From Minisyncoccota bacterium (GTDB lineage: Bacteria > Patescibacteriota > Minisyncoccia > Phycocordibacterales > XYD1-FULL-46-19): a stretch of 64,000 bases of DNA. A program made the position numbers and the translations under genes. The stretch spans positions 94,240 to 158,239 of the forward strand of contig JBBDJY010000006.1 in assembly GCA_040879645.1 (NCBI GenBank), written 5' to 3'. Under the pieces are notes generated by a model that did not search any database, was not told where the DNA came from, and was given only the letters and a program-made list of their open reading frames with translations. Shown one piece after another: positions 36,841-63,115 of this stretch (positions within the stretch are counted from its first letter, which is position 1; each line of letters begins with the position of its first letter).

Positions 36841-36901
36841 AATAATTAATCTTCTCCCGACTTAAGATTAAATAATGTTGTCGATTTTGCGGTCAATCGA
36901 C

Positions 36902-37960: not shown

Positions 37961-37972
37961 ATTGATTATTAA

Positions 37973-45128: not shown

Positions 45129-45136
45129 GTTTCAAT

Positions 45137-46737: not shown

Positions 46738-46823
46738 CCAATCCTCCATTTCTTGACTGTTCGTTAATTCCCGTTCAATCTCTTAGGATTTGGACGGGAA
46801 TTTTTCTGTAAATAAAAAAACAA

Positions 46824-46857
46824 ACCTGTTCCATTCGCTAAAAGGAATGGAACAGGT
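46824..46857. terminator. 12-bp stem terminator between convergent genes.
   Basis: acctgttccatt...aatggaacaggt flanked by an A-run and a T-run. Confidence 0.75.
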
Positions 46858-46874
46858 CTTTGGAGACAAGATAG

Positions 46875-47258: not shown

Positions 47259-47322
47259 CAGATTCACCTCCTTTCGAAGACCAAGTTTTCTCCGGAATCT
47301 GCTCCGGAAGATTATCTACCCG
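47259..47322 (-). promoter_or_regulatory. Conserved 5' leader cassette, copy A: a -10-like TAGATAAT, a 7-bp hairpin, then AAAACTTGGTCTTCGAAAGGAGGTGA.
   Basis: Shared with the cassettes at 51393-51465 and 61068-61135. Confidence 0.6.
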
Positions 47323-47366
47323 AAGTGTGCTCTGGTGTCGATTTATTGTCAATGGGTAGATAAATT

Positions 47367-48149: not shown

Positions 48150-48153
48150 AAAA

Positions 48154-48684
48154 TTACAATTTTTTACTCATTCCGATGATAATTTCGCCCTCATCTCCTT
48201 CCTCGCGCATAAACTCCTTGTATCCCAGTCTTTCGTACAGTTTGACCGCATTGATATTTGTTTCTTCAACCCCTAGAGTCACCTCTTTAAATTTGCGAGC
48301 CCGCGCCTCATCAGTGATAATTTTTACCAAATAAGAACCGATCCCTATCCCCCTTGATTCTTGTCGAACTCTAGCGTGATGCAGGTGCGCTTTGGCCTTC
48401 CCATCAGCATAAAACGTCTTGTCCATTCTGAAAACTAATTGAATTGTTCCGACAATCTTTCCCTTCAATCTGGCGCCATAAATGATTCTGTTTCCGACCG
48501 CCGCGTCTCCGATGTCTTTTTTGATGTCGGTTTTTATTTTAATTTTACGATTAGAATCCGCTTCCGGATAGAGTGAAATTATATCCTCCGAGTTGGTTAT
48601 TGTGAAAATCTCCAGATCTTTCATCTTACTTATAACCATAGCAAATGTTATAACGCTAAACAAATCAGGTTTCGATGCCCGCAC
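48154..48684 (-). CDS. GNAT family N-acetyltransferase.
   Basis: QESRGIGIGSYLV (motif A) ... NINAVKLYERLGY, 176 aa. Confidence 0.7.
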   Translation of the reverse strand: MRASKPDLFSVITFAMVISKMKDLEIFTITNSEDIISLYPEADSNRKIKIKTDIKKDIGDAAVGNRIIYGARLKGKIVGTIQLVFRMDKTFYADGKAKAHLHHARVRQESRGIGIGSYLVKIITDEARARKFKEVTLGVEETNINAVKLYERLGYKEFMREEGDEGEIIIGMSKKL

Positions 48685-48716
48685 TTTTCTTGTAGAGATA
48701 GAGAATGCCAGTATTT

Positions 48717-50402
48717 TCAGGCGTTGTTTTTAGGCACGTTTTTAGGTTTGTTCGTAAAGGCGGAATAATCAGCCACGCGAGTCAGTGACCCTTCGGCCAA
48801 GATGTAAGTGGAGTCAAGTTTAGCCCGCTCGAGAAAGTAGCGGTCATGTGAGACAAGAATGACCGTTCCGGTGTAAGTTGACAGGGTCTTTTCCAAGGCA
48901 AAAAGGGCAGCCAAGTCCAGGTGATTGGTCGGTTCATCAAGAATTAATGTATTCACCGACCGAGCGGAGAAGATGGCCAGAAGCAGGCGAGCTCGCTCGC
49001 CGGGACTTAGAGTCCCAACCAATTGCTTGACGCGGCTTTTATCAAAGCCAAACTTGGCCAGTTTGGCATAGGACTCTTGGCGACCCAATTTCGCTTGCTT
49101 CATCACACACTCAAGTAATGACAAATCTCGAGGCAAAGTTTCGTGTTCTTGCATCAAATTACCAACTTTAACGCCGGAACCGAGCTTGACCTCGCCGGCC
49201 AGCGGTGGCAGTTTGCCGGTAATTGTCTTGAGTAGAGTTGACTTGCCCGAACCGTTCAAACCAATGATTCCCAGACGATTGCCGTAGGAAATGTCCAAAG
49301 ATAACGGACCAACACGAAAGCCATCAGGGTAACCGGCAACCACGTCACTCAAAGACAAATGGCGCCGACCGGGGCCGGTTTTTGCCTCAAGCGGAATGGC
49401 AAAATCATCGGACTCAAACGGCTTTTCAATTTTCTCCATCTGGCCAATCCGCTTCTCAATCACTTTGGCGGCCCGGGCCGATTGTCCGGCCCGTTCACGC
49501 TTGAAACCCTTGAGCAGCTTGTCTCCATCGCTCCCCTGCCAGTGTGACCCTTTTTCTGATGATTGGCGTTTTTTCCTAGCGGTTTCGGTTAGGCGCTTAA
49601 CCTCTTTTTGCTGGAGGGTGTATTCGGTCTCTTGCCTGGCATTTTCTTTGGCCAATCTGGCCAAATAATCGCTGTAGGTACCACCAGAGACAATCAGGGT
49701 TTGCTGGCGAGAGTCTAGCCGGAAAATCTTTTTGGTCGTCCGGTCAAGAAATTGCCGATCATGAGAGACGACAATGCAAGTCGCCGAAATTTGCCGGATG
49801 AATTCCTCAAGCCAAATGAGAGCTGGTAAATCAAGATTATTGGTTGGTTCGTCAAGTAGAAGTAAATCAACCCCCCGGAGAAGAACTCCGGCCAAGGCCA
49901 CTTTGCTCTTCTGTCCGCTACTCAAGGCCGTCAACGGCTTATCAATATCGTCCTCGGTTAAACCAAATCCGGAAATGATTGCCTTCAACCTGAAGGTAAA
50001 AGTATAACCATCTAAACGCAAGTACTCTTCGTGTAGCTGATTATACTTTTGGGCCTGATCGGGTTGGTGAAGATCTGGCGACAAGTTCTCCAGTTCCTTT
50101 TCAATCTTGTCGATGCCGAGTAAAGCTCGAAGATGCTCGCCGACCGTTTCCTCTCCGGTCAAGCTCGTGTCTTGGGGCAAATAGCCGAGGCGAAGATCTT
50201 TCGCCAGCTTAATTTCACCACCATCAAGTTCTTCCAGACCGGCAATGATTTTAAGCAAAGTGGTCTTGCCGGACCCATTGTCTCCGACTAGGGCCACCTT
50301 GTCCCCTTCTTCCACCAAGAAAGAAACATCAGCCAACAAAGTCAGTGAGCCGTAGTTCTTGTGGATGTTTTTAGCTTGAATCATGCTCATATCTCCTTCC
50401 AC
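48717..50402 (-). CDS. ABC-F family ATPase (two nucleotide-binding domains, no transmembrane domain; EttA/Uup or ARE type).
   Basis: GDNGSGKTT + LSGGQKSKVALAG, then GLNGSGKST + LSPGERARL, with a charged linker; 561 aa. Confidence 0.85.
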   Translation of the reverse strand: MEGDMSMIQAKNIHKNYGSLTLLADVSFLVEEGDKVALVGDNGSGKTTLLKIIAGLEELDGGEIKLAKDLRLGYLPQDTSLTGEETVGEHLRALLGIDKIEKELENLSPDLHQPDQAQKYNQLHEEYLRLDGYTFTFRLKAIISGFGLTEDDIDKPLTALSSGQKSKVALAGVLLRGVDLLLLDEPTNNLDLPALIWLEEFIRQISATCIVVSHDRQFLDRTTKKIFRLDSRQQTLIVSGGTYSDYLARLAKENARQETEYTLQQKEVKRLTETARKKRQSSEKGSHWQGSDGDKLLKGFKRERAGQSARAAKVIEKRIGQMEKIEKPFESDDFAIPLEAKTGPGRRHLSLSDVVAGYPDGFRVGPLSLDISYGNRLGIIGLNGSGKSTLLKTITGKLPPLAGEVKLGSGVKVGNLMQEHETLPRDLSLLECVMKQAKLGRQESYAKLAKFGFDKSRVKQLVGTLSPGERARLLLAIFSARSVNTLILDEPTNHLDLAALFALEKTLSTYTGTVILVSHDRYFLERAKLDSTYILAEGSLTRVADYSAFTNKPKNVPKNNA

Positions 50403-51031
50403 TTAACCGCAATAAGATTATTATCTTCTTTCCAAGGCTTAGACATTGCTTTGATAAAAGTTTTTCGACCAACTTTCCGATTTTTAATTGGTGGCAATCC
50501 CGGATCATGGAAAGTAATATTATTATCTTCTATTGCCGTGATTAGAACCAAATGACTGGCATATCCTTTCTTTCTTTCCAAAACGTAAGGGTTAATTGAT
50601 ATCATAACCAAAAAGCCGTCATAGAAATACCTCTCAATATCACTGATAGAAATTTTTTTATTTATTAATTTAATTAAGGGATTCTTGATCAATTTCCGGG
50701 CTTGTATCTGTTCATTATCTAAATCAGAATATTTTTCTTGAACTTCAAAAACCTCTTTGCTCCAAATTTGGGCTAAATATTTTTTTCCTTGGCGAACAAA
50801 CTTTTTATAGTCGAGATTTTCAATATTAACCACCTCAAATCCCAGATTGGCTAAATATAGTAATCCTTGACTCTGCCAAGTCCATTGTTTCGGCTTATGA
50901 CCAATCAGGGGATCTAATATGTGATAGGGATAATTTTTATTCGGCAAATAATATTTTAAAACCATCCGCCAGCAAGCTGGCAAGCAACGAGTGTCATCTT
51001 TAGTATTTTTGTAAAAAGGAATATTAAGCAT
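50387..51031 (-). CDS. Standalone peptidase C39-like (papain-fold, bacteriocin-processing type) domain protein. The start is probably MLNIPFY; the listed ORF runs to 51076 through a terminator.
   Basis: DTRCLPACWRMVLKYY (catalytic Cys motif) and SHLVLITAIEDNNITFHDPG (His motif). Confidence 0.5.
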   Translation of the reverse strand: MLNIPFYKNTKDDTRCLPACWRMVLKYYLPNKNYPYHILDPLIGHKPKQWTWQSQGLLYLANLGFEVVNIENLDYKKFVRQGKKYLAQIWSKEVFEVQEKYSDLDNEQIQARKLIKNPLIKLINKKISISDIERYFYDGFLVMISINPYVLERKKGYASHLVLITAIEDNNITFHDPGLPPIKNRKVGRKTFIKAMSKPWKEDNNLIAVKWKEI

Positions 51032-51063
51032 AATTTTTATTAGGATAACACATAAATAAAATA

Positions 51064-51095
51064 GGCGGCAGGTCATGACCTGCCGCCAAGTGTCT
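51064..51095 (-). terminator. Rho-independent terminator after the Gly-rich micro-ORF.
   Basis: ggcggcaggtcatgacctgccgcc plus a T-rich run on the minus strand. Confidence 0.75.
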
Positions 51096-51112
51096 GACAG
51101 GGATTACTTCTT

Positions 51113-51181
51113 CCTGCCACCACCACCTCCGCCGCAACCACCACCGTTGTGATTACCGCCGTTGCCGGACATACTAACACC
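51113..51181 (-). CDS. 22-aa Gly-rich, Cys-containing micro-ORF, MSGNGGNHNGGGCGGGGGGRKK, with a strong Shine-Dalgarno. An in-frame 28-aa form starts at MRGGVS.
   Basis: GAGAGGAGGTGTTAGT ATG. Terminator immediately downstream. It is co-transcribed with the 61-aa ORF from the leader cassette. Confidence 0.35.
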
Positions 51182-51206
51182 TCCTCTCATATGGATTTTT
51201 TGCCTG

Positions 51207-51392
51207 CTACTTCTCAAGTGGCAAACGAATGCCCAAGGGTGAAAAGGAAGGATAACTAGTATTATATCTCTTCCTCCTATCCTTACTCCTCCTCCGCTCA
51301 GGGATTTTTGGGTCAGGATAGTTGAACCAAGGATTTTGTTGGCTTGAGGTTGAGTCAGAGGAAAATCCTGGCACTAGTTCTTCCGGGATCAT
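51207..51392 (-). CDS. 61-aa hypothetical peptide MIPEELVPGFSSDSTSSQQNPWFNYPDPKIPERRRSKDRRKRYNTSYPSFSPLGIRLPLEK.
   Basis: The ATG lies 9 nt after the cassette's AGGAGGTGA. The listed ORF starts at a GTG in that Shine-Dalgarno. Confidence 0.4.
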   Translation of the reverse strand: MIPEELVPGFSSDSTSSQQNPWFNYPDPKIPERRRSKDRRKRYNTSYPSFSPLGIRLPLEK

Positions 51393-51465
51393 AATGATGT
51401 TCTCACCTCCTTTCAAAGATCAGTTCTTCCCGGAACCCATTTTCCGGGAAATCTAATATCAGTCT
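51393..51465 (-). promoter_or_regulatory. Conserved 5' leader cassette, copy B: TATTAGAT, a 9-bp hairpin TTCCCGGAA/TTCCGGGAA, then ...CTTTGAAAGGAGGTGA.
   Basis: Seen directly; compare copies A and C. Confidence 0.6.
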
Positions 51466-51476
51466 AACCCGATGTC

Positions 51477-51500
51477 TTTTGTTGGCAATAGCCGACAAAC
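51477..51500. promoter_or_regulatory. 20-bp imperfect palindrome TTGTTGGCAATAGCCGACAA (operator-like), copy B.
   Basis: Identical core at 59810-59829 and 61149-61168. Confidence 0.5.
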
Positions 51501-51592
51501 TGAAATAAAAATCAAGCCAAAATCCCCTTTATTTAAAATGTATTTTCTCCTCCGCAAAAAATTTCTCTGATTCTGTCGGCCGGTGACAACAC

Positions 51593-53269
51593 TTACTCTC
51601 CTGCTTGCTTTATTTCCTCTCGATTAGCCGAGGCGGCATCAGGTAATTCAAGGGTAAAAGTGGAGCCCTGGTCCTTGCCGGGCGAATTGGCGATAATTTG
51701 TCCTTGATGGGCTTCAATGATTTGTTTGGCGACAAACATTCCCAGACCGGTACCTTTGACATTTATCTTCCCCTCATCATCAGCCCGAACAAATTTTTGA
51801 AACAGTTTTTCAATTTCCTCCGCTTCCAAACCGACACCGGTGTCGGTGACATCAATCCTCACCTTTCCATCACCGGACTTAACCGCTACCTTTACCGAAC
51901 CGGCCGGCGTGTACTTAATCGCATTGTCGATAACATTGGAAATTACCTGACCGATTTTACCACTGTCGCCATAAACCAAGTACTCACCCTTGTCAGCCGT
52001 AAAGGATAATTTGATTTTCTGATTCTTGGCTGTCGCTTCGTATTCTTTAAGAACTTGTTCGGTTAAGTTCTTAAGATCAAATTCAGTCAATTCATATTTC
52101 ATCTTGCCCAATTCAATTCGCGTGATATTAAGAAAATCTTCAATCACCCGGACCAATTTCTGGCTGGATTCAAATACAATATCAACCTTTTCCTTTATTT
52201 TTTTCGGTACTTTTCCAAATGACCCTTCCAAAATCATTGATGAATACCCCTTGATGGCGGTCAACGGTGCCCGCAACTGATGCGAAGCGATAGAAACAAA
52301 TTCGGTCTTTTGTTTGTCCAATTCTTTCAATTTTTCATTAGCCCCAAACAAAGCTTTATTGACCTCTCTTAATTCTCCAGCCAATTTTTCAATGTGCTCT
52401 CTTTGTTTTATTTCCCGACGAACACTACGAATTAAATAAATGCCGAATATAAGTATTGATACAAAAATTAACGAATCCACCGCTCTTTCTATGATAGTGT
52501 TTGATCTAAATATTTGAGAAAAAATTATAATCCACAAAACTATTATAACTGCCTCAGTCACTATTATTTTAATATTAAAAAGTTCATATTTAGTAATTGC
52601 ATAGGCGGTTATCCCCATAAAAATTAGTGCATAAATAGAAATCAGGGGTAAAAATATTCCATTTCCGTAGATTATTATTGGAAGTAAGATTGTCCCAATA
52701 AGCAATAATAGCATCAGTGATATTCCGATTAAAATTAAAATGGATTGATATTGTCTGACTCCACTGTACTCTATTGTTTTTTTAAATAGAAAATATATGG
52801 CCAAGACACTAAACAAGGTAGATATAATCGCAAATGGAATTATTCCTAATCCAGCAATGGGATTTCCGCTATTATCTGTGGTATGGGTAAAGGCATAAGG
52901 AGATATATTTATAATTGCCATTACCGCAGTAAGAAGTAAAATTAAAACAAAATTACGTTGCGACATCATTATTTTATGACTTGGTATTGTATGGGCAAAT
53001 AGAAGGAACAAGGCGCTCATTAATGCCGCGAACATTATGCTAAGACGATGAAAGAAAATAGCTAATGATTCTATTTCTGGTAGTCCGGCTATATATCCTG
53101 ACCATAACCAAAACAATATAAAAATACTTAGCAATGAAAAAATTATATTGGTAGCACTTTTTTTATTACTGTAATAAATAGTAAAAATCAGTACGATTGA
53201 TCCTATCGACACTCCAGCAAGAAAAAATAACTCTAATTCACTTACTATATTAGAAAAAATTTCAATCAT
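51593..53269 (-). CDS. Sensor histidine kinase with a 7-transmembrane N-terminal domain; no response regulator is adjacent.
   Basis: HisKA region VSIASHQLRAPLTAIKGY, HATPase_c region DTGVGLEAEE...GTGLGMFVAKQII, 558 aa. Confidence 0.85.
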   Translation of the reverse strand: MIEIFSNIVSELELFFLAGVSIGSIVLIFTIYYSNKKSATNIIFSLLSIFILFWLWSGYIAGLPEIESLAIFFHRLSIMFAALMSALFLLFAHTIPSHKIMMSQRNFVLILLLTAVMAIINISPYAFTHTTDNSGNPIAGLGIIPFAIISTLFSVLAIYFLFKKTIEYSGVRQYQSILILIGISLMLLLLIGTILLPIIIYGNGIFLPLISIYALIFMGITAYAITKYELFNIKIIVTEAVIIVLWIIIFSQIFRSNTIIERAVDSLIFVSILIFGIYLIRSVRREIKQREHIEKLAGELREVNKALFGANEKLKELDKQKTEFVSIASHQLRAPLTAIKGYSSMILEGSFGKVPKKIKEKVDIVFESSQKLVRVIEDFLNITRIELGKMKYELTEFDLKNLTEQVLKEYEATAKNQKIKLSFTADKGEYLVYGDSGKIGQVISNVIDNAIKYTPAGSVKVAVKSGDGKVRIDVTDTGVGLEAEEIEKLFQKFVRADDEGKINVKGTGLGMFVAKQIIEAHQGQIIANSPGKDQGSTFTLELPDAASANREEIKQAGE

Positions 53270-54330
53270 CTGTAATTTATTTTAGGTAATAACTTTGTCG
53301 ATTTAGCTGAAGGCTCTCCGTCATATCCTATGCGCAGGATCGTTGTGATAATCCCATTTAATCTACAAATTGACTCTATCCCATGATAAGCCGTCTTAAT
53401 TTCATTATTGTCTTTTTCCGTAAATACCTGTGAAGCGGTTTTTTCTTCAACGGCTTGGTGAAAGAATAATAACCCACTGTTTAATTGTACTGACAAATTA
53501 TTTTTTGTTGCCGCTAACCAAATTGATTGGACTTGTCTCCCAACGTCAATAAAAGATTTACTATCTTTTAACTTAGCGCTAATAATACACAGCCCGGCAC
53601 AAGCGGAATGTGTCTCCTTATTTTCTGCGGCAATTTTTTTAGCGATGCCTAGTTTAAGCGCCAAAGACATAATTGGCCAATATTTAAGTAATCGCATCAA
53701 TAGTCTTTTGCCGAAGCTTAATTCCAGTGTATGGATTAATAGTCCCCCACCTCTTAACTTTTCTTCATTTTTATTCCAAACCAATTCTTTAAAAAAAAGT
53801 CTGTTTAAAAATTTATTTTCAAACATTATTCTTTCACCGACTGATAAATATTTAGCGATTTCGTCTATACTCGTTCGATTATAGATAAAATTAACATTTA
53901 CTTGATTATTAAAATTTATATATTTTTTTAAATCTGAAACAACGTTTTCCGTGATTGCCTCTTTGGCGTAAGGTTTTCGATTAGAGGCCCGCTTATGCAA
54001 ATAACTGTATAAAGGGCTTAATTTAACCGAGTCATCGTCTATTAACTCTATCGAAGCCGTTAATTTGGGCTCATTTTGATTAGGAAATATTTTTACAATA
54101 GCTTTTAAGTTGTGCTTGGTCGAAGCAATGGCAATATTTTCAATCAAGGCCCCATGAGCGATATAGGTTCCTCGATTTCGGACGTTTAGAACCGCGTGAT
54201 CTTTTTCCGGCTGAGCAAATATATTAATGGTGTTATCTTTTATTTCAAAGTACCAAGGCTGAGAATTTCCTCCCGATGGAGCATCGTAACTATCAGCCAG
54301 TATTTTTTCTATTATCACCTGATTAACCAT
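53266..54330 (-). CDS. Nitroreductase-family flavoprotein, enlarged (354 aa; tandem or SagB-like dehydrogenase type).
   Basis: PSGGNSQPWYF signature near the N-terminus. The length exceeds simple nitroreductases of about 200 aa. Confidence 0.6.
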   Translation of the reverse strand: MVNQVIIEKILADSYDAPSGGNSQPWYFEIKDNTINIFAQPEKDHAVLNVRNRGTYIAHGALIENIAIASTKHNLKAIVKIFPNQNEPKLTASIELIDDDSVKLSPLYSYLHKRASNRKPYAKEAITENVVSDLKKYINFNNQVNVNFIYNRTSIDEIAKYLSVGERIMFENKFLNRLFFKELVWNKNEEKLRGGGLLIHTLELSFGKRLLMRLLKYWPIMSLALKLGIAKKIAAENKETHSACAGLCIISAKLKDSKSFIDVGRQVQSIWLAATKNNLSVQLNSGLLFFHQAVEEKTASQVFTEKDNNEIKTAYHGIESICRLNGIITTILRIGYDGEPSAKSTKLLPKINYR

Positions 54331-54337
54331 AGTTTTA

Positions 54338-55378
54338 TTATATCAAATTTTCATTAAAACCACTCTCTTTAATCCCGGTCGCCTTTATTATTTTAGCCAC
54401 CCCTTTTTGCCAAGTGGCAATCGGGGTGATTTTAAGTCGAGGAATATCCGGCACTTGTTCATCAACCATATATCTAAATTCTCCGGCGGTCAGAAGAGAT
54501 CCAATTAGTAATCCTTCGGCGGTTAACAGGTTGGAAAATTTGGTTAAATCCTCGATGTTTTCTATCTTTTCAGTTTTCAGATAGTGTTGTAAAGTTTTTG
54601 TGGTTATTTGCCCGGAGACATACAACTTTTTTGTAAGCTCTATCAATTTGTCCATATCTAACCAGTAGGTTGGGAATTTATAGGAATAAAAAGATCGGTC
54701 AACATTTAATTTTTTATTGGGAGGCAGGCCTAAAGTTTCTTCGGCGGCAATAAAAGGCATGGCGGTTACTTTCCCATTTTTATTCAGGGCAATCACTTTA
54801 TTTTGGATATCACCCCTGACGATAGCGGTAACATATTCAAAGGTATTGATGTCTTCAGAATAATCAGCTATAAATTGCGCCTGCATCAGGGCGAAACATA
54901 TAGCGGTAAATTTATGTTTAGTTGAGTTTTTTTTGTTTATAAAACACGGATGAACCCCACACATTCTGGAGTCAGAATACACTTTAGACCATAGATTCTT
55001 ATTTGACCAATTCATTTTGTCGCACAGTAACTTAGGTACCGGCTGATTTTTATATTTATACAATTCTATTTCTCCAATCCCGGTAAATAATCCATCCCCG
55101 GGAACCATGCGCACACTCAACCATTCTTCGGTTTCTTTACCGTACCGGGCCCGGGCAAGATAGATAACAGCCTTATCGTCATATTTATCAAATAATTCCC
55201 GTGCCCCATATTTTTTGTATGAACCTCTGGCCAAGGCCAGGATTTTATACAGGCTTTTATCTAACCACTTTTTGTTATTTAAGTCTTTGGCACGGTAAAT
55301 CTCAAATTCTGCTTCAGCTGTAGAATAAACAGCTAAGGGTTTGGGTAATTTAAGCAGTGTCTCTGATATATTATTCAT
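54338..55378 (-). CDS. Hypothetical protein (346 aa) with a possible acyltransferase-like fold (very weak LuxI/FeeM/FemX-like impression).
   Basis: No clear motif was found. It is tightly packed inside the operon. Confidence 0.4.
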   Translation of the reverse strand: MNNISETLLKLPKPLAVYSTAEAEFEIYRAKDLNNKKWLDKSLYKILALARGSYKKYGARELFDKYDDKAVIYLARARYGKETEEWLSVRMVPGDGLFTGIGEIELYKYKNQPVPKLLCDKMNWSNKNLWSKVYSDSRMCGVHPCFINKKNSTKHKFTAICFALMQAQFIADYSEDINTFEYVTAIVRGDIQNKVIALNKNGKVTAMPFIAAEETLGLPPNKKLNVDRSFYSYKFPTYWLDMDKLIELTKKLYVSGQITTKTLQHYLKTEKIENIEDLTKFSNLLTAEGLLIGSLLTAGEFRYMVDEQVPDIPRLKITPIATWQKGVAKIIKATGIKESGFNENLI

Positions 55379-55383
55379 TGTAA

Positions 55384-56505
55384 TTAAATGTCCAATAGAT
55401 TGTTTAATTGCTTAAGGGTTTTTTGCCTTTGTTTTATGGCGTCTTTTTTTTGAAAATCAGAATCTAAAGTTGAAATCGGACTAAAGACATATTTGCCAGA
55501 CTTAAGATGATCAGTTGTTAAAATCATTTTGACAGTCATTGCTAATATTGATCCGGACATTACCGCCGCAATCCCTAATTGAGGTACATGGTTAATCGTT
55601 TGACCAATTGCTATGAGTGACTTTTGTAGATCTTCTTCCATAAATTCTGTTCCGATAATTTTAGAAGAAAGTTTACTCCAGGCTTTCGGGTCTTTATGGC
55701 GCAATAATGCCAGCCCGATATTTTTTGGTAAACTTACTCGGCCGTGGAAAATCGGGTATTTAGGGTCTCTATCATATCTTTCGATGTCTAAGATAATACC
55801 ATTGCCATTATCGGTCGCCATTAAAACGGGGATTTTCTTTTGTCTTGCTTTTTGCCTTATCCTCACTTTCATCATCAAATTATCCATCTCATCAATTAAG
55901 ATGTCGACGGCCGATAAAAAATTATCAATATTTTTCTCAGTTACTCCTTGGCGGAATATCTTTATGTCAGCGTAGGGGTTATTTTGATAGATATATTCGG
56001 CTGTTCTTTCTGCTTTATTCTGGCCAATATCGAGAAAATCAAAATGGAGCCGGTTTAGGTTGGTGCCAGAAATCTTGTCTCCATCCGCGATTTTCAAGTG
56101 TTTGGCAATACCGGACATCGAAAGAACCATGGCGGCATGACTACCAACGCTTAATCCGGCAATGGCAATTGTCGCATTATATAATTTATCTTGAGCAATA
56201 CTTGATACGACTTCTTTATTGCGAGCGGTTCTTAATTCCTGATGAAGGTCTTCCGGTAAATAGGAGACTAAAGTTTTGTTCCAAGGAAAATAAAACCAAG
56301 TTCCAGGCTTTGTTTGTTTTTTATTGTTTGGAAGATTTTTTATGAATTGTTTAAATTTGGGATCGTTTTTCGATTTTACTTTCTTTAGCGGATTTCTGAC
56401 TTGATAAAGCTCATAGATCAAATCGTCATATTTATCAATTTTTTTAGATATTTCATGAGAATTCTCAAATTTTTTTAGATTTAAAACTCGAATTGGTTTT
56501 TTCAT
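55384..56505 (-). CDS. ThiF/MoeB/E1-like adenylyltransferase with an N-terminal extension of about 105 aa.
   Basis: Rossmann/E1 signature IAIAGLSVGSHAAMVL...IADGDKISGTNLNRL, 373 aa. Confidence 0.7.
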   Translation of the reverse strand: MKKPIRVLNLKKFENSHEISKKIDKYDDLIYELYQVRNPLKKVKSKNDPKFKQFIKNLPNNKKQTKPGTWFYFPWNKTLVSYLPEDLHQELRTARNKEVVSSIAQDKLYNATIAIAGLSVGSHAAMVLSMSGIAKHLKIADGDKISGTNLNRLHFDFLDIGQNKAERTAEYIYQNNPYADIKIFRQGVTEKNIDNFLSAVDILIDEMDNLMMKVRIRQKARQKKIPVLMATDNGNGIILDIERYDRDPKYPIFHGRVSLPKNIGLALLRHKDPKAWSKLSSKIIGTEFMEEDLQKSLIAIGQTINHVPQLGIAAVMSGSILAMTVKMILTTDHLKSGKYVFSPISTLDSDFQKKDAIKQRQKTLKQLNNLLDI

Positions 56506-56515
56506 GGATCCTTAA

Positions 56516-57625
56516 CTACTTTCTTAAATCGGCAATATATTTGTTTTTATAAGAACTTGTTTTGGATGCATCTATGTTTTTTTGGAAAATAATTTTTTTA
56601 TTTTTTAAAAAATTGAGAGTTTCGTTTATTTCGGCTTCTTTCTTCTTTACTTTATTATCAATAAAAATTTCAACCAGATCTCTATCATTGTTGGTTTTAA
56701 TATAAACCATAAATTGGTCGGTAAATTTAAGTAACGAATCTATAATTTTTGTTTTAGATGTCAGAATACCCTGGACTTTAATTAAATCATCACTCCGGTT
56801 TATTATTTCAAATTCCTTCAACGATCCATTCCGGTTATATTTTACATTATCCAAAATATCCCCCGTTTTATATCGGATTATCGGTGTGGCCAGATTATAT
56901 AAATCAGTGACAACTAAATGTTTTAAGTTTTTAATTTCTATCGCTTCAACATATATACCATTGCTTATGACGGTTATTTTTTGAGGATCATCTTTTTTTG
57001 ATACCCCAATCGCCGGGCACTCGGTTAGGCCAAAGTGATTAATGACTTCAATCCCATACCTTTTAAATGTATCGGTATAGCTGTCTAAAAGTCTCTCGCC
57101 GGCGACAATTATCTTTTTGGGGAAATATCTTGATTTTTTTTCTTGTGCCAACAAGTTAAGTAAACTGATGGCATAACTGGGGACCGAAAGCCAAACATTT
57201 GGCCTGATCTTTTTTATTGCTTCTATCATCTTATCTTTAGGATAAGTGTTAGGGGCGCCTAGCGGTATTACCGAAATGTCCATTTTTTGGCAGGCCTTTT
57301 CGTACATACTCCCCGGCACATAATTACCATAGGCAAAAAGGTTTAAGACGATATCGTCTTTTGCTACTCCTGATTTTTTAAGCGATTTAATGGCCCGACT
57401 GATAAAGTGATGAACCGCTTGTTTTGAGTAAAAAACATATAAAGGGAGCCCGGTTGACCCGCTGGTAACCCGTAACTCTAAAAAAGATTTAGGCGTCTTA
57501 AATTTTTTAATTACGTTTTTATTACTGACTGGTACCTCGCTCCAGGTTTTTATTTTTGAGCCCCGATGAAAATTACGTAATATGTCTTGTTGTCGTATTT
57601 TTAGCGATGATTTGTTGTTTTTCAT
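56516..57625 (-). CDS. Adenylate-forming enzyme of the PaaK / coenzyme F390 synthetase / CapK-like family (ANL superfamily).
   Basis: VTSGSTGLPLYVFYS (A3-like), HFGLTECP (A5-like) and YKTGDIL (A8-like). Confidence 0.65.
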   Translation of the reverse strand: MKNNKSSLKIRQQDILRNFHRGSKIKTWSEVPVSNKNVIKKFKTPKSFLELRVTSGSTGLPLYVFYSKQAVHHFISRAIKSLKKSGVAKDDIVLNLFAYGNYVPGSMYEKACQKMDISVIPLGAPNTYPKDKMIEAIKKIRPNVWLSVPSYAISLLNLLAQEKKSRYFPKKIIVAGERLLDSYTDTFKRYGIEVINHFGLTECPAIGVSKKDDPQKITVISNGIYVEAIEIKNLKHLVVTDLYNLATPIIRYKTGDILDNVKYNRNGSLKEFEIINRSDDLIKVQGILTSKTKIIDSLLKFTDQFMVYIKTNNDRDLVEIFIDNKVKKKEAEINETLNFLKNKKIIFQKNIDASKTSSYKNKYIADLRK

Positions 57626-57636
57626 AGAGGAAGAAT

Positions 57637-58044
57637 TTAAACTACATAAAATTTTTCTTCAACCTCGGCCCTTATCTCGCCTCTTATTTTATATTTTCGA
57701 GAATAATTTGTTTTTGAGATAAGAATTCTTTTTAAATTTTTATTTTGAAAAATTTTACCAAATGGTTCATTGGGATTATGAGTGGCCCAATCATTAACAA
57801 ATTTGTTTTTTTTAAGTTTGTTAGTGGCTTGGCATAGGATTTTATCATTTTTTAAAAAGGCAATTTCTCGAAAGATAAAATCTTCGGTTATTTTTTGTTT
57901 TAATAGTTTGAACTCGACATCAGGAATATTTTTTTCAATATATAAAGTTGTTGATAAGGTAATATCATTTAATAATTCGAAAAACCACGGTGCCTCTTTT
58001 TTATTCATTCCAGCAAAAAAGCGATGCAAAAAAATAGCTTTCAT
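57637..58044 (-). CDS. Hypothetical 135-aa protein.
   Basis: ORF in the operon. It is preceded by a 19-aa micro-ORF (58063-58122, MEKYLIKKSYLDMTLLGEK) with an AAAGGTGG Shine-Dalgarno. Confidence 0.4.
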   Translation of the reverse strand: MKAIFLHRFFAGMNKKEAPWFFELLNDITLSTTLYIEKNIPDVEFKLLKQKITEDFIFREIAFLKNDKILCQATNKLKKNKFVNDWATHNPNEPFGKIFQNKNLKRILISKTNYSRKYKIRGEIRAEVEEKFYVV

Positions 58045-58247
58045 TATTTTATAGATTAAATTTTACTTTTCGCCAAGTAAAGTCATATCCAAATAGGACT
58101 TTTTAATCAAGTATTTTTCCATTCTTTCCACCTTTTAATAATATGACATTTTTTATCATACCACGGTTTAATTTATAAAGAAAGATTGATCAATTAAACT
58201 TAAATCCAAAAACTGTTTTTTATTTAACAATTAAAACCGAGATATCA

Positions 58248-59399
58248 TCAGGTCTCTTTTCCGATAGCTTGACTGATGTTGTGATATCCGTCTTGTTGTA
58301 ATAATTTAACCAAACCTTGGTTAATCTGGCTAATTGTTTGTGGTCCGTTAAAAATCATACCGGTAATCATTTGCAAAAGAGAAGCACCGGCTTTTATTTT
58401 TTTATAGGCATCAGTGGCATTAAATATCCCACCGACTCCGATGATGATAAATCTATCCCCGGCTTTTTTATAGAGATAAGAGATTTGCTGATTGGCTAAA
58501 TCTTCGACGGCTTTTCCCGATAGCCCGCCATTTTCCGCTGGCAATGTTTCCTTAATTTTTGCTTGGATGTTTTTATTGGTCTTATCTTTAACTAAATTGG
58601 AACAAATAAAACCACTGATGTTATACTCTTTCCCCAATTCAATAATTTCATCTAATTTGTTTGCCGGCAAATTATCCGGTGGCAATTTTATAAAAATCGG
58701 TTTTGACCAAGTGGCTATCGGAGAATGTTCTGTGGCCAGGGCCGTAAGTAGTTTTTTGAGAGAAGATGGATTGGCAAAAGGTTCTCCGCCAAAAGTATTC
58801 GGGCAACTGATATTGATAGTATAATAATCGCCAACCTTGGCTGCCAAAAAATAACGGTAAGCCGACAGATAATCGGCAACGCCGGCATCGGTCTCGATTG
58901 TCTTTTTGCTATTGGTTTTGGCTAAACTAACACCGACCGGAAAAGCAAATTTTTTGACCTTAAGGCGATGGCTGATAACTTTTGCCCCGTCATTTTTAAG
59001 GCCATAGTAAACCAGTAAACTTTTAGATTTTGGTAAACGCCAAAGACGAGGTTTGGGATTTCCTTCGCAAGGTTCACCGGTGACCGAACCACCTTCCATA
59101 AAACCAAAACCAACGAAGGGTAAAATATCTGCCAATTCTATATTTTTATCAAAACCGGCCGATAAGCCAACCGGGTTTTTAAATTTGATCCCCAAAATAT
59201 TTTGTTCCAGTGTCGGATGTGAATATCCGAAACATAATCTCACTATGAATCTGGTGATTTGGAATTGGCCCAGAAATTTACCAATTTCATTAAATCTATC
59301 GTGAACCTCTTCCGGATTATGTCGAAATAAAATTGGCTTTAACAAAAAACGATACTTCCAGGCAATTATAGTATTTCTAAATTTTATTAATGTTTCCAT
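58248..59399 (-). CDS. pyrD: Dihydroorotate dehydrogenase, class 2 (quinone-type) fold.
   Basis: FKNPVGLSAGFDKN, GFGFMEGGSVTGEPCEGNPKPRLWRL, INISCPNT, GGLSGKA, IIGVGGI...AGASLLQ align with the recalled E. coli PyrD. Confidence 0.85.
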   Translation of the reverse strand: METLIKFRNTIIAWKYRFLLKPILFRHNPEEVHDRFNEIGKFLGQFQITRFIVRLCFGYSHPTLEQNILGIKFKNPVGLSAGFDKNIELADILPFVGFGFMEGGSVTGEPCEGNPKPRLWRLPKSKSLLVYYGLKNDGAKVISHRLKVKKFAFPVGVSLAKTNSKKTIETDAGVADYLSAYRYFLAAKVGDYYTINISCPNTFGGEPFANPSSLKKLLTALATEHSPIATWSKPIFIKLPPDNLPANKLDEIIELGKEYNISGFICSNLVKDKTNKNIQAKIKETLPAENGGLSGKAVEDLANQQISYLYKKAGDRFIIIGVGGIFNATDAYKKIKAGASLLQMITGMIFNGPQTISQINQGLVKLLQQDGYHNISQAIGKET

Positions 59400-59520
59400 C
59401 TATTGGTGCACCTTATTAATTTGAACTGTAGCACATTTTAAAAAGAAAAGTAAAATATTAAAATTAGTCTCCCGAGGCCAAAAAACCACTCCATTTTTAT
59501 GGTTCTTAAGACAAGTCAAA

Positions 59521-59545
59521 AAAACGCCTGTTTAGGCGAGGATTT
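59521..59545 (-). terminator. Small hairpin plus T-run after the GreA-C-like gene.
   Basis: cgcctaaacaggcg followed by ttttttt on the minus strand. Confidence 0.5.
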
Positions 59546-59783
59546 TTTCAACTTTGATTACCACTTGGCGATCTCGAATCACTCCTGGTTTTTCTTCACC
59601 CGCCTGCATTTCAAGCAGAAGTGAAGCCAAGGGAGCATCGCTCGCAATTTTACCTTCGGCGATATCGGTTTGGCCAAGGCCGACAATGGTCCAAGTTTGG
59701 GACTGACCGTTAACCGTGACGGCTATTCGGTTGCCAATCTGGACTTTTGGCGCTTTTTGTTCATGGATTTCTTTGGTTTCCAT
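59532..59783 (-). CDS. GreA/GreB C-terminal (FKBP-like) domain-only protein of 84 aa. The start was moved to METKEIH; the listed TTG start lies inside the operator palindrome.
   Basis: RIAVTVNGQSQTWTIVG..ADIAEGKIASDAPLASLLLEMQAGEE resembles the GreA C-terminal domain. Confidence 0.45.
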   Translation of the reverse strand: METKEIHEQKAPKVQIGNRIAVTVNGQSQTWTIVGLGQTDIAEGKIASDAPLASLLLEMQAGEEKPGVIRDRQVVIKVEKILA

Positions 59784-59807
59784 TAAGGTGATAATAGGCC
59801 CCCGGCC

Positions 59808-59915
59808 AATTGTTGGCAATAGCCGACAAAATGACTTTGATTTTAGTCAAAAATATCCTTGGTTTGCAATCTTTGCCGGCTAAGAGAGAGAATTTCACCG
59901 GTTTTGTTGGGGCTG
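59808..59915. repeat. Repeated regulatory module of about 110 bp, copy D. It contains the palindrome TTGTTGGCAATAGCCGACAA and a TTGACT box.
   Basis: 64 nt are identical to 61147-61209, followed by a similar tail (..ccgrttttgttgggg..). Confidence 0.8.
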
Positions 59916-59936
59916 GATGACAAATCAAGACAATTT

Positions 59937-60485
59937 TTATTTTATATATAGAAAATGTAAAATATGCCAATTTTTGATCTTGTCCTGCCTGGTTAATCCC
60001 TGACCAATATCTTCTGAAGAAAAATAAGGCGGAATGGATAACAATGAGAGTGATTCATCCCGCGAATAAAATGACATTTTTCCTCTTCTTTCCGTCACCC
60101 AGCCATCATTAGGGCCAAATAAAGTAAAATAAAGAAAACCGGATTCGTCCAATGACCGGAAGGCCGTTTTAATTATTCGCGCAATCTCTTGTTTATCGGT
60201 GATAAAAGGTAAAACATTAGCCATTATGATGCCGTCATATTTCTGATTAAAAACAAAATCCTGAATGTTTTTATTTTCAATTCGCCAATAACCATCCTCT
60301 GCTATTTCTTTAAAATTTTTTTGGGCTTGAATCAGCGCTCCCTCGTCTACATCTACTAAAGTTACCTGATATCCGTATTTTAGAAAATCCATTGCTTGCC
60401 GACCATCACCGCCACCCAGGTCAATTAATTGACCGTCAGCTTTTAATAACTTCTCATTTTTTAATTTTTTAAATAAAGGAATCAT
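59937..60485 (-). CDS. Class I SAM-dependent methyltransferase (TehB-like).
   Basis: LIDLGGGDGRQA (motif I), VTLVDVDE, 182 aa. Confidence 0.7.
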   Translation of the reverse strand: MIPLFKKLKNEKLLKADGQLIDLGGGDGRQAMDFLKYGYQVTLVDVDEGALIQAQKNFKEIAEDGYWRIENKNIQDFVFNQKYDGIIMANVLPFITDKQEIARIIKTAFRSLDESGFLYFTLFGPNDGWVTERRGKMSFYSRDESLSLLSIPPYFSSEDIGQGLTRQDKIKNWHILHFLYIK

Positions 60486-60587
60486 AAAATTATTTTAATA
60501 TTTATATTAATTTTAAAACATTAACAAAAAAATCGCGCAATTACCACAGTAACTGCGCGATCCAAGTCTTGGTCACAGAATAGGTAA

Positions 60588-61067
60588 TCAGGTGCAATTG
60601 ACAGTGCCATTGCAATCGTAGTCAGGGGAGCAATCTAACCCACAGCCAACTCGCCCAGATATAGCTCCTTCCTTCGCCCATCCCCAATTGTCAGAGATGA
60701 GAACAGGATCAAGATGTTTCTTGACAGCCTTAATGGTCCGAAGGATACAATCACGGTCTGATACCGAGTCACGTTCTGTCTTAGGAACGTGGTGAATGAA
60801 AACACCAAATTCCCTCTGACAAAATTCTGCGTAGTCTCGCGTGAATAAAATGAAAGAATGCCACCCCTCATCAATAATTGAAGGCGGGGCAATGCTCTCA
60901 TTTTCTTGCTGAGTCAGCCACAGAAATGTTAAGGTATCCCTGAACAATTCCTCGGCTTCTTCCATTGGAAGGCAGAGGTTCCGTGAAAGACGGCTCACTA
61001 CTCCATGGTTATCGTAGTGAAGAACGTCTTCAAGAGAAGCCTTGTTCTCTGTTTGTTGCAAAGTCAT
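60588..61067 (-). CDS. Hypothetical protein with a DUF1399/GRDP-like motif and a Cys-rich C-terminal tail. The start is the ATG after the cassette's Shine-Dalgarno.
   Basis: IIDEGWHSFILFTRDYAEFCQREFG fits a W-H...L....Y...C...[FY]-G pattern, recalled from memory. The tail reads GCGLDCSPDYDCNGTVNCT. Codon usage is more GC-rich than the neighbours. Confidence 0.5.
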   Translation of the reverse strand: MTLQQTENKASLEDVLHYDNHGVVSRLSRNLCLPMEEAEELFRDTLTFLWLTQQENESIAPPSIIDEGWHSFILFTRDYAEFCQREFGVFIHHVPKTERDSVSDRDCILRTIKAVKKHLDPVLISDNWGWAKEGAISGRVGCGLDCSPDYDCNGTVNCT

Positions 61068-61135
61068 ATAATCACCTCCTTTCAAAGACCAAGTTTTTCT
61101 TTGGACCTATTTCCAAAGAATCTAATATCACCTTA
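61068..61135 (-). promoter_or_regulatory. Conserved 5' leader cassette, copy C: TATTAGAT, a 7-bp hairpin CTTTGGA/TCCAAAG, then AAAAACTTGGTCTTTGAAAGGAGGTGA.
   Basis: Seen directly. Confidence 0.6.
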
Positions 61136-61146
61136 CTGAAAAAAAG

Positions 61147-61255
61147 AATTGTTGGCAATAGCCGACAAAATGACTTTGATTTTAGTCAAAAATATCCTTG
61201 GTTTGCAATATCTTTCGATTTCAGGTGGAAATTTTGCCGATTTTGTTGGGGAGAT
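61147..61255. repeat. Repeated regulatory module of about 110 bp, copy C (palindrome at 61149-61168), lying between divergent genes.
   Basis: See copy D. Confidence 0.8.
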
Positions 61256-61316
61256 TAAACAATCCATTCGTCGCCAAAATATGCAATGGATATTGTTTGT
61301 GAGATAATAAATATCT

Positions 61317-63045: not shown

Positions 63046-63115
63046 GCCGCCACCCAGGTCAATCAATTGACCGTCAGCTTTTAATAACTTCTCATTTTTT
63101 AAATAAAGGAATCAT
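63046..63115. repeat. Duplicated fragment of about 70 bp, copying the 5' end and start region of the methyltransferase gene at 60409-60490.
   Basis: gccgccacccaggtcaat(c/t)aattgaccgtcagcttttaataacttctcatttttt...aaataaaggaatcat. Confidence 0.8.

Follow-up and report, generated by a model that had tools for sequence, protein, structure and literature searches.

Putative mobile promoters, i.e., promoters reused within prokaryotic genomes, have been described as upstream regions of at least 50 nt that are at least 80% identical within fixed 100-nt windows, while the coding sequences that follow them are non-homologous (Matus-Garcia, Nijveen and van Passel 2012; PMC3488235). The window analyzed here, a 64,000-nt stretch of the genome of an uncultured Paceibacterota bacterium, contains copies of a non-coding module of ~118 nt, each with the palindrome TTGTTGGCAATAGCCGACAA at its head, that are similar to these promoters. 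Copies B and C can be aligned over 105 nt at 85% identity and stand before non-homologous genes of one genome, with non-homologous upstream neighbors and without transposon hallmarks. Their alignment corresponds to the published definition in substance and not to the letter, because in fixed 100-nt windows B and C would overlap by ~46 nt only. The downstream genes (gene A, a GreA-C-like gene, gene C, and an ndk-like gene) have no significant mutual match by blastp, and the upstream neighbors (a histidine kinase, a methyltransferase, and a divergent 293-aa gene) differ too. In contrast to the described promoters, copies A and D fall below the 80% rule and can be recognized only by their invariant palindrome, the set is clustered where acquired gene blocks are joined, and the conserved core is a dyad overlapping a predicted -35 element.

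The palindrome also resembles the -35-overlapping operators of repressors of the MarR, TetR, and LexA types, in that a 20-bp dyad with 8-bp arms is present at three predicted promoters, is much better conserved than the DNA around it, and is accompanied by an auxiliary weak site about nine helical turns away. Unlike for those operators, no cognate protein was found here in 66 kb, the sites have flanking DNA in common, as expected of copied and not independent sites, and there is no conservation in the other genomes searched. We know of no operator consensus that matches the TTGTTGGCAATAGCCGACAA-type palindrome. With Correia, BOX, and ERIC-type repeats the module has in common that it is short (~100 to 150 bp), modular, intergenic, and repeated, that it is located upstream of genes, that it can donate promoter elements, and that it has a mosaic makeup (module, leader, and core); it differs in lacking terminal inverted repeats and target duplication, in its very low copy number in 66 kb, and in being known from a single genome.

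The attL/attR direct repeats and the attC sites of integrons are similar to the present locus in that the B and C direct repeats, with their identical cores, surround an acquired unit, the sites are all oriented alike, and their core is palindromic but imperfect. Here, however, the center is 4 bp, and unlike integron cassettes the genes lie in both orientations with their own promoters, with "cassettes" of 1.3, 3.9, and 8.3 kb. An integron attC site was rejected because the R''/R' motifs RYYYAAC...GTTRRRY, as read from the sequence, are not in the right arrangement and no integrase was found in 66 kb. Tyrosine recombinases have an overlap region of 6 to 8 bp, and a tyrosine-recombinase core was rejected on the 4-bp center and on the failure to find a recombinase in 66 kb, the direct repeats around the acquired unit being present nonetheless.

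Copies of the module and conservation of the palindrome

The palindrome has three exact matches in the window (51479 to 51498, 59810 to 59829, and 61149 to 61168), all on the plus strand; none of 100 dinucleotide shuffles reached three matches of the 20-mer (mean, 0.02). The preliminary description had placed it upstream of three loci, which the exact copies confirm. A fourth copy, D (TTGTTGGCAATAGGCGACAA; one mismatch), is located 1 kb beyond the window end, upstream of the ndk-like gene (L008 positions 1961 to 1980, equivalent to window position 65033), and adjoins a 51-aa ORF with a truncated look. A profile of the module (nhmmer) found four copies only; these lie inside a 14-kb stretch, and the remaining 50 kb contain no copy. 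The orientation of the palindrome is identical in all four copies over 66 kb (the three exact ones and that with one mismatch); a single chromosomal orientation is not something that an operator demands.

The 4-nt center that had been reported for the palindrome was found again, but the 8-bp arms are imperfect, with Watson-Crick pairing at seven of eight positions. The odd position is T.G on the plus strand and C.A on the minus strand, and this asymmetry (G.U versus C.A) is the same in all copies. The minus-strand reading is TTGTCGGC TATT GCCAACAA.

Copies B and C are direct repeats, 1,339 bp apart, with an identical run at 59808 to 59870 and 61147 to 61209 that is 63 nt long and not 64 nt, as first counted. 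The tails next to this run have only ~55% identity, and the pair looks like the product of a recent duplication or gene-conversion event. Copy A had been described at 51477 to 51500 as diverged but retaining the palindrome. Both points stand; it is not, however, a 24-nt remnant but aligns over the whole module, with gapless identities of 61% to B over 105 nt, 73% identity to C over 104 nt, and an E value of 2e-30 over 116 nt in the profile search. While its palindrome is conserved at 20 of 20 positions, the remaining 96 nt are 52 to 55% identical to those of B and C (chance level, ~27%, calculated from base composition); at the background identity rate of the module, a perfect palindrome in A would have a chance of ~1e-6. 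In copy D, the palindrome retains 19 of 20 positions, compared with ~32% identity around it, and a 34-nt block is 94% identical to B and C. The palindrome is conserved above the surrounding non-coding DNA in both A and D, and the invariant block of 20 to 21 bp is symmetric and includes the distal arm and the 4-nt center. The homology of B, C, and D ends 0 to 2 nt from the left foot of the palindrome and reaches rightward for 34, 63, or 118 nt, while the homology of A and C is present on both sides of it.

Copies A and D are older and have diverged, but the palindrome is still kept in them, and one recent segmental duplication therefore fails to explain the set. Such a duplication, with no conservation of the palindrome in other genomes, had been considered in the preliminary description; it is the second part that was borne out. 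No copy of the motif was found in ~75 kb of loci from Paceibacterota relatives (L014 to L018), and upstream of the gene C ortholog in L009 there is a plain TTGACA promoter without the palindrome. The exact 20-mer was not found as a module in three public collections, with one stray match only in 185,579 species genomes, matches only inside apparent coding regions in JGI metagenomes, and no match in viral contigs.

Predicted promoters and a candidate operator

The gene-proximal arm of the palindrome contains, on the minus strand, the -35-like hexamer TTGCCA, which in copies A, B, and C is followed by TAnnnT after 16, 17, and 17 nt, respectively, in predicted promoters. This geometry is expected by chance at ~0.06 per site, calculated from base composition. 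Between A and C, the spacer from TTGCCA to the -10 hexamer is unalignable, yet its length is equal within 1 nt. The -10 hexamers are weak in A (4/6) and C (3/6). Promoters of the related Paceibacterota type share this consensus, with TTGACA-17-TAGTAT in L009 (read from the sequence) and TTGACA-17-TAACAT in L008. We infer that the TTGCCA-TAnnnT pairs are promoters; GATATTAGAT, previously proposed as a -10-like box, is better read as the transcription-start region. Predicted starts are 3 to 4 nt 5' of a conserved leader hairpin (A and C; 9 bp, with compensatory changes) or at a leaderless ATG (B).

Module A (51477 to 51594, minus strand) makes up the whole spacer from the histidine-kinase stop codon (51593 to 51595) to the gene A promoter. 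This promoter (51461 to 51488, minus strand), predicted by promoter scan and geometry, consists of the -35 TTGCCA (51488 to 51483) in palindrome O1-A, a 16-nt spacer, and the -10 TAGACT (51466 to 51461). The leader hairpin (UUCCCGGAA-AAUGGG-UUCCGGGAA; 51427 to 51450, minus strand) is located ~4 nt past the predicted start, with compensatory changes relative to C and X. Gene A (51207 to 51392, minus strand) is a 61-aa ORF with the ribosome-binding site AAAGGAGGTGA in front, for which Pfam and NCBIfam profile searches returned no family match. A weak second site, O2-A (CTGTCGGCCGGTGACAACAC; 51573 to 51592), is 94 bp from O1-A and inverted relative to it, has three arm mismatches, and adjoins the kinase stop codon.

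Module B (59808 to 59925, minus strand) separates the TehB-like methyltransferase, whose stop codon is at 59937, from the GreA-C-like gene. The predicted promoter of the latter (59791 to 59819, minus strand; scan score, 10/12) consists of TTGCCA (59819 to 59814) in O1-B, a 17-nt spacer, and TATTAT (59796 to 59791), and with 7 nt between TATTAT and the ATG at 59783 the gene is predicted to be leaderless. It encodes 83 aa (59532 to 59783, minus strand) with a GreA/GreB C-terminal domain only (PF01272; E = 5.9e-9), its NCBIfam GreA matches being weak and far under the cutoff. The weak second site O2-B (TTGTTGGGGCTGGATGACAA; 59904 to 59923) is again 94 bp from the palindrome. Module B also has a second promoter-like site, TTGCAA-18-TAAAAT (59840 to 59869, minus strand; scan score, 9/12), which is found in C as well (61179 to 61208) and is not conserved in A; this site would put O1 just downstream of its own transcription start.

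Module C (61147 to 61264, minus strand) occupies the divergent spacer between gene C (minus strand) and the 293-aa gene at 61317 (plus strand). The predicted gene C promoter (61130 to 61158, minus strand), sub-threshold in the scan and read from the sequence, consists of TTGCCA (61158 to 61153) in O1-C, a 17-nt spacer, and TAAGGT (61135 to 61130), and the leader hairpin (UUCUUUGGA-AAUAGG-UCCAAAGAA; 61097 to 61120, minus strand) is located ~3 nt past the predicted start. The second site, O2-C (61243 to 61262), also 94 bp from the palindrome, is degenerate, with the half-site TTGTTGG only. Between B and C is a horizontally acquired two-gene unit (59937 to 61067, minus strand) of gene C (60588 to 61067, minus strand; PF27765, UCP032817-like) and the TehB-like methyltransferase (59937 to 60485, minus strand). 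The palindrome of copy D is not in a -35 position; a gene on the opposite strand has its predicted -35 ~24 nt downstream of it, and relative to that promoter the palindrome is centered near -70.

A homologous module upstream of non-homologous genes points to promoter reuse, and a palindrome that is conserved far above the module and overlaps the predicted -35 in three copies has the appearance of an operator. The copies are probably homologous promoter modules of ~118 bp placed before unrelated genes in a low-GC accessory region. We tentatively favor a reused ("putative mobile") promoter module in which the palindrome would serve as a -35-overlapping operator for a putative dimeric regulator. 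The gene-proximal arm would supply the -35 TTGCCA of a sigma-70-type promoter, and the -10 and everything downstream (a hairpin leader with a ribosome-binding site, or a leaderless ATG) would be the individual gene's own. Since conservation extends over a symmetric block of 20 bp, and not merely over a 6-bp -35, the palindrome would most likely double as an operator. A regulator bound at about -45 to -26 would compete with sigma region 4 and could jointly repress, rather than activate, gene A, the GreA-C-like gene, and gene C with the methyltransferase, possibly assisted through DNA looping by the weak second site 94 bp upstream (~nine helical turns). Sites of one regulon usually have the motif alone in common, and the 34 to 118 nt of flanking DNA common to these sites thus indicates that they were spread by copying.

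The preliminary description had offered an operator or a miniature mobile promoter, and the findings are consistent with both together; the module does not qualify as a classical miniature transposon, since it has neither inverted terminal repeats nor a target-site duplication. A search for a nearby transcription factor had been suggested there; Pfam scans of 59 ORFs in 66 kb (56 in the window and 3 in L008) identified no DNA-binding regulator except a MazE/AbrB antitoxin (45375 to 45617), 6 kb away.

To our knowledge, how reduced, uncultured Patescibacteria (CPR) control transcription and make use of newly acquired genes is almost wholly unknown. If the promoter-operator interpretation is true, foreign genes with their own leader would be plugged behind a common upstream module that supplies the -35 and a shared operator, a simple route by which unrelated accessory genes would be brought under one control, and the exact 20-bp sequence provides a probe for finding the regulator. 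The module is probably a local curiosity and not a new kind of system.

Alternative readings of the palindrome

An ordinary promoter without a dedicated binding protein, its module spread by segmental duplication and gene conversion, would explain that TTGCCA fits a -35 role in the predicted geometry, that the 63-nt identity of B and C beside their diverged tails resembles a conversion tract, that further short duplications are found in the same region, and that the other genomes searched do not share the motif. The palindrome would then be kept for the -35 and an upstream contact of RNA polymerase, or conversion tracts would start at the hairpin-forming sequence. We consider this unlikely, because a -35 needs 6 bp, yet the invariant block extends symmetrically through the distal arm and center, and because D keeps the palindrome where a -35 role is impossible.

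The main rival reading, similarly doubtful, makes the palindrome the core of a site at which gene blocks recombine or are joined, being inserted, excised, or exchanged, with the promoter-like features secondary, whether through a putative site-specific recombinase, a hairpin-nicking enzyme, or plain homologous recombination between module copies. B and C flank exactly gene C and the methyltransferase, a pair that travels together in unrelated organisms and is found in L009 and L012. In relatives, the histidine kinase is followed directly by TrpRS, 13 to 22 nt apart; in the window 6.46 kb separate the two, and module A forms the start of this insertion on the kinase side. Copy D adjoins the truncated-looking ORF, and a fragment of the methyltransferase N terminus (63047 to 63115, minus strand), which duplicates 60409 to 60485 and was left by another rearrangement of this region, is close by. 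The fixed left edge and variable right extent of the homology in B, C, and D and the single orientation of all copies also fit, and a recombination core remade perfectly at every event would account for a perfect core with diverged arms. Against this, the same Pfam scans of 66 kb found no recombinase, integrase, or transposase, the 4-bp center is too short for a tyrosine recombinase overlap region, the far end of the 6.46-kb insertion is without a second copy, A and C are homologous on either side of the palindrome, and the constant 16- to 17-nt distance from palindrome to TAnnnT in three contexts is left unexplained.

We regard as improbable the further proposal that the palindrome is the recognition and junction site of an undescribed mechanism of gene-block shuffling in this Patescibacteria genome. 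The modules would be docking sites, with acquired genes inserted behind a ready-made, co-regulated promoter, and a cut or nick at the hairpin foot would be followed by rightward copying over variable lengths. Such a mechanism would account jointly for a left boundary that is fixed, right boundaries that vary, the direct repeats flanking gene C and the methyltransferase, and the location of module A at the edge of the 6.46-kb insertion.

A small non-autonomous mobile element (MITE-, REP-, or PATE-like) with a recognized terminal hairpin and, by chance, an outward-facing -35 is decidedly improbable. A hairpin-forming sequence is located at the fixed end of the module and is repeated in degenerate form close to the opposite end, the two ends of A are inverted and able to pair, and B resembles insertion-sequence hybrid promoters, in which the element contributes the -35 and the flanking DNA the -10. 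L015, from a related Paceibacterota genome, contains a Y1-transposase-like gene flanked by palindromes of its own, though these are unrelated to the one described here. However, no terminal inverted repeats besides the palindromes themselves and no target-site duplication common to the flanks of the four copies were found, the four copies are confined to 14 kb, no transposase was detected in 66 kb (and no Y1_Tnp gene in the window), and dead copies should decay evenly, whereas A has an intact palindrome and an interior that is ~45% diverged. That the palindrome acts as a plus-strand RNA hairpin (a stabilizer, processing site, or small RNA) whose odd position is a G.U pair is very improbable. 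In its favor, every fold contains the hairpin, the folding of module B is better than that of shuffles (z = -3.3), and the G.U versus C.A asymmetry is constant across copies; against it, the other copies fold no better than shuffles (z of about -1.1 to -1.5), the stem and loop are invariant without compensatory changes, the one change in D breaks a pair, plus-strand transcription in A and B would run antisense into the neighboring gene, neither a conserved ORF nor a terminator is present, and Rfam 15 gave no match at the gathering score in the whole window.

Were the module only a local duplication, it would still be an example of promoter reuse, of spurious ORFs made by repeats, and of short-read assembly breaks. 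The ORF translations confirm the earlier observation that two ORFs with CKPRIFLTKIKVILSAIANN in common read through the repeat, and Logan contigs terminate inside the repeats described here.

Structure and conservation of the repeated module

The exact 20-bp palindrome TTGTTGGCAATAGCCGACAA was found three times in the window, at 51479 (copy A), 59810 (copy B), and 61149 (copy C), always on the plus strand, and none of the shuffled versions of the window reached three matches to it. Each occurrence heads a noncoding repeat of about 118 nt, referred to here as the module (A, 51477 to 51594; B, 59808 to 59925; C, 61147 to 61264). B and C align over 105 nt with 85% identity; the identical block that the preliminary description had given as 64 nt is confirmed as a run of 63 nt (59808 to 59870 and 61147 to 61209). 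Copy A, previously taken for a 24-nt remnant, instead aligns with the module without gaps over its full length (61% over 105 nt; nhmmer E = 2e-30). A fourth copy, D, lies on Logan contig L008, which reaches 2.3 kb beyond the window end; its palindrome (L008 1961 to 1980, equivalent to window position 65033) differs at one position, and 34 nt of this copy match B and C at 94% identity. The same strain was found in the Logan assembly of SRR27977663, whose contigs end within the module repeats. When A, B, and C were combined into a profile, it recovered just A to D in the 66.3 kb searched, all in the same orientation. The repeated module with its palindrome is real, and with four copies and a whole-module repeat it is larger than first noted.

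A weaker second site, O2, lies 94 bp from the first palindrome (O1) and is inverted in A, present in B, and a half-site in C. Near-matches to the palindrome number four, including two of these second sites, against a calculated chance expectation of about 0.5. Partial matches also lie leftward of O1, at a distance of exactly 143 nt, in both A (TTGTTGGC, 51336 to 51343, within ORF A) and B (GGTTTGGCCAAGGCCGACAA, 59667 to 59686, within the GreA-C-like gene); these share TTGGC alone in register and may be a coincidence.

In copy A the palindrome is retained at 20 of 20 positions while the remaining 96 nt of the module are 52 to 55% identical to B and C, where about 27% would be expected by chance from base composition; at the module's own identity rate, the probability of 20/20 in A is about 1e-6. 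In copy D the palindrome is retained at 19 of 20 positions and only 14 more bases to its right are clearly alignable, followed by a 10-nt insertion and then about 50% identity. Against such diverged surroundings, the palindrome, including its 4-nt center, is the constrained part. No compensatory changes were found in the palindrome among the four copies, and the single change in D breaks a pair, which argues for sequence-specific recognition rather than structure alone. Several intergenic regions in the housekeeping part of the window carry another, unrelated set of palindromes, often in tandem pairs, that have the core ACCGAGGTTAAACCTCGGT (10549 to 10592, 12401 to 12427, 12459 to 12506, and 22513 to 22559).

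Promoter geometry, leaders, and a putative shared operator

Read on the minus strand, the palindrome is TTGTCGGC TATT GCCAACAA, with TTGCCA within its proximal arm. The promoter scan predicted TTGCCA-17-TATTAT for copy B, followed by 7 nt and then the ATG in a leaderless arrangement, and TTGCCA-16-TAGACT for copy A. The predicted promoter of copy C, TTGCCA-17-TAAGGT, was read from the sequence and falls under the scan threshold, with the key A2 and T6 positions retained. Between A and C the spacers from TTGCCA to the -10 cannot be aligned, and their lengths are within 1 nt of each other. Predicted starts near 51454 (A) and 61123 (C) fall 3 to 4 nt ahead of a 9-bp leader hairpin; compensatory changes distinguish its stem among A, C, and a third gene (47258), and after this hairpin comes a maximal ribosome-binding site, AAAGGAGGTGA. 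Because the predicted starts fall just before the leader hairpins, and given TTGCCA-16/17-TAnnnT in three contexts, the 11-nt GATATTAGAT, earlier described as a -10-like box, is more likely the start region. Both observations also led us to drop a class II activator, for which the palindrome would be centered near -41.5 if GATATTAGAT were the -10.

The ndk-like gene behind copy D has a predicted sigma-70-like promoter (TTGACA-17-TAACAT), one of two near-consensus examples noted in this lineage, the other being that of the gene C ortholog in L009. Its -35 begins about 24 nt downstream of the palindrome, whose center is near -70, and no usable -10 was found on the minus strand beside this copy.

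The genes behind A to D have no mutual homology. Behind module A is gene A (51207 to 51392, minus strand), a 61-amino-acid ORF with no family match; behind B is a protein of 83 amino acids consisting of a GreA/GreB C-terminal domain only (59532 to 59783, minus strand); behind C is gene C (60588 to 61067, minus strand), which matches PF27765 (UCP032817-like) and is followed by a TehB-like methyltransferase; and downstream of D is the ndk-like gene, a divergent nucleoside diphosphate kinase (L008 2079 to 2501, plus strand). The GreA-C-domain-only architecture is that of the "regulator of nucleoside diphosphate kinase" (Rnk), and pyrD lies directly downstream of this gene. A theme of nucleotide metabolism linking the GreA-C-only protein, the ndk-like gene, and pyrD is possible as judged from these annotations.

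We tentatively favor the reading that the module is a reused promoter region, in which the fixed end would supply the -35 and the gene-specific part the -10 and leader. A dimeric regulator would bind the palindrome across about -45 to -26 and block sigma region 4, making the palindrome a putative repressor site shared by at least three transcription units, and the auxiliary site O2, nine helical turns away, could permit looping. A dimeric regulator best accounts for symmetric conservation over 20 bp, which goes well past the 6 bp of a -35. What we infer from this arrangement is promoter activity, the regulator, whether it represses or activates, and looping. To our knowledge, none of the Rex, ComA, parS, resolvase res, sigma-54, and integron core sequences fits the palindrome in spacing or sequence. 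The "putative mobile promoters" described by Matus-Garcia et al. (PMC3488235) are the same in concept: B and C are as similar as their identity criterion asks, and the neighboring genes are nonhomologous. On this reading the locus would be a further example of known promoter reuse, here with an operator-like core, in a poorly studied lineage; no regulator was found among the 59 ORFs scanned except a MazE/AbrB antitoxin. Of the two proposals originally made, an operator for a dimeric regulator or a miniature mobile promoter element, each was partly right: promoter reuse with an operator-like core is retained, and a classical miniature transposon is unlikely.

A leader cassette, consisting of a hairpin near the 5' end and then the full-length ribosome-binding site AAACTTGGTCTTTGAAAGGAGGTGA, is common to three mutually unrelated minus-strand genes: a lipoprotein gene (46875 to 47258), gene A, and gene C. 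The hairpins are at 47291 to 47308, 51427 to 51450, and 61097 to 61120, within flanks at 47260 to 47330, 51393 to 51460, and 61068 to 61127, and their stems differ through compensatory changes. The leader at 47264 occurs without the palindrome module; upstream of it, TTGACA (47352 to 47347)-17-CACACT was noted by eye. The low-GC genes at 59783, 61317, and 63131 seem by eye to be leaderless: they lack a ribosome-binding site, and a -10-like hexamer precedes the ATG by 6 to 8 nt. Long leaders with a strong ribosome-binding site were observed on higher-GC genes (47258, 51392, 61067, and the ndk-like gene), which were probably acquired.

Rearrangements around the copies and other explanations

The main rival, which we consider doubtful, is that the palindrome is a junction or recombination site. 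Related Paceibacterota loci were reached via pyrD, the closest relatives having 62 to 69% protein identity. In two of these, L017 and L018, TrpRS directly follows the histidine kinase, 13 to 22 nt apart, and beyond it come a class II tRNA synthetase, ScpA, ScpB, and a D-Ala-D-Ala carboxypeptidase. The backbone of the window has the same order, yet the kinase stop (51593) is separated from the TrpRS start (45128) by 6.46 kb of genes of mixed composition. By this comparison the block (45129 to 51592) is an insertion relative to the conserved backbone; it holds a MazE/RelE-like pair, a CsgG-like gene (0.57 GC), the lipoprotein, a nucleotidyltransferase, small gene A, a GNAT acetyltransferase, an ABC-F ATPase, and a C39-like peptidase. 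It begins exactly with module A at the kinase end, whereas its far end has no second module copy. B and C are direct repeats 1,339 bp apart that enclose gene C and the methyltransferase, a pair found together in unrelated organisms too (loci L009 and L012). Copy D adjoins a truncated-looking 51-amino-acid ORF, and the last 14 kb of the window, a low-GC accessory region (0.32 to 0.37 versus about 0.45 elsewhere), contains gene fragments and short duplications. Among these, a 69- to 77-nt fragment of the methyltransferase N terminus is duplicated (63047 to 63115 versus 60409 to 60485; 98% over the first 56 nt), and the duplicate ends exactly at the start codon, beside the promoter of the 63131 gene. 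Between B, C, and D, homology stops at most 2 nt from the left foot of the palindrome while its rightward extent varies, which, like the shared orientation of all four copies, would suit a junction. However, no recombinase, integrase, or transposase was found among the 59 ORFs scanned, the palindrome center is just 4 bp, and the distance to the -10-like hexamer is conserved at 16 to 17 nt. Weighing these points, we keep recombination as the main rival; homologous recombination and gene conversion among the module copies would fit the same junction facts as well. That the modules act as docking sites through which acquired genes are shuffled we consider improbable; were it so, the finding would be of greater interest.

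The module lacks terminal repeats, target duplication, and even decay, which makes a classical miniature transposon unlikely. An RNA element is unlikely as well: no Rfam match was found, one of eight folds was better than shuffles, and plus-strand transcripts would run antisense to the neighboring genes in A and B. The features of an integron attC are not present. A replication origin where the strands switch, near 61.2 kb, was rejected, as the window-wide GC skew shows just a terminus-like maximum near 35 kb.

From position 1 to about 35 kb the skew stays positive and is then near zero or negative, regardless of gene strand, and the cumulative maximum lies inside the window at about 34000 to 38000. 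Two stretches of about 1 kb each, 29204 to 30294 and 33430 to 34595, lack any long ORF, and Rfam gave no match to them at gathering score. Genes between 50387 and 58044 encode an AMP-binding enzyme, a ThiF-like enzyme, an unknown 346-amino-acid protein, a nitroreductase-like protein, and a 7TM histidine kinase, followed by small ORF A and the C39-like peptidase; this set looks like a peptide-modification or signaling cluster. The related locus L015 has nitroreductase-like, ThiF, and TrmB genes with the same kinase type nearby.

Occurrence in other genomes and relatives

Collection-scale motif scans were restricted to exact 20-mer matching, so diverged forms of the motif may exist in other species. 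One stray match was found in 185,579 species genomes, and five in metagenome contigs, all apparently within coding sequence from unrelated organisms; no match represents a module copy. There was no exact match in viral contigs and no BLAST match to the module in phage and plasmid collections, and the related Paceibacterota loci, about 75 kb in all, had no copy of module or palindrome. A chimeric peptide query made from the module's three open reading frames, aimed at spurious ORFs running through further copies, had no match, an outcome that says nothing either way about such copies. So far as these searches reach, the module is confined to one genome. Nothing relevant was found in the literature on Patescibacteria promoters and palindromes.

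At the gene C ortholog in L009 the gene pair, terminator, and hairpin leader are retained, and the palindrome is absent; an ordinary sigma-70-like promoter, TTGACA-17-TAGTAT, was read from the sequence there. Homologs of gene C occur in unrelated, high-GC organisms and thus give no information on motif conservation; this distribution shows the gene C-methyltransferase pair to be horizontally mobile. A near-match to the palindrome in L017 (17340) falls within an apparent T-box leader and is probably due to chance. This T-box-like leader (AGGGTGGCACCGCGG; L017 17300 to 17560), recognized by eye, precedes a class II tRNA synthetase, and the Rfam scan found no T-box upstream of the window ortholog (40466 to 41899). 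In L015, a Y1-transposase-like gene (4700 to 5640; weak PF01797) is inserted between rpsI and grpE with flanking repeats of the type TGTGCGA...TCGCACA, and the similar TGTGATTGTGCGA is present in the terminator after the gene C ortholog of L009.
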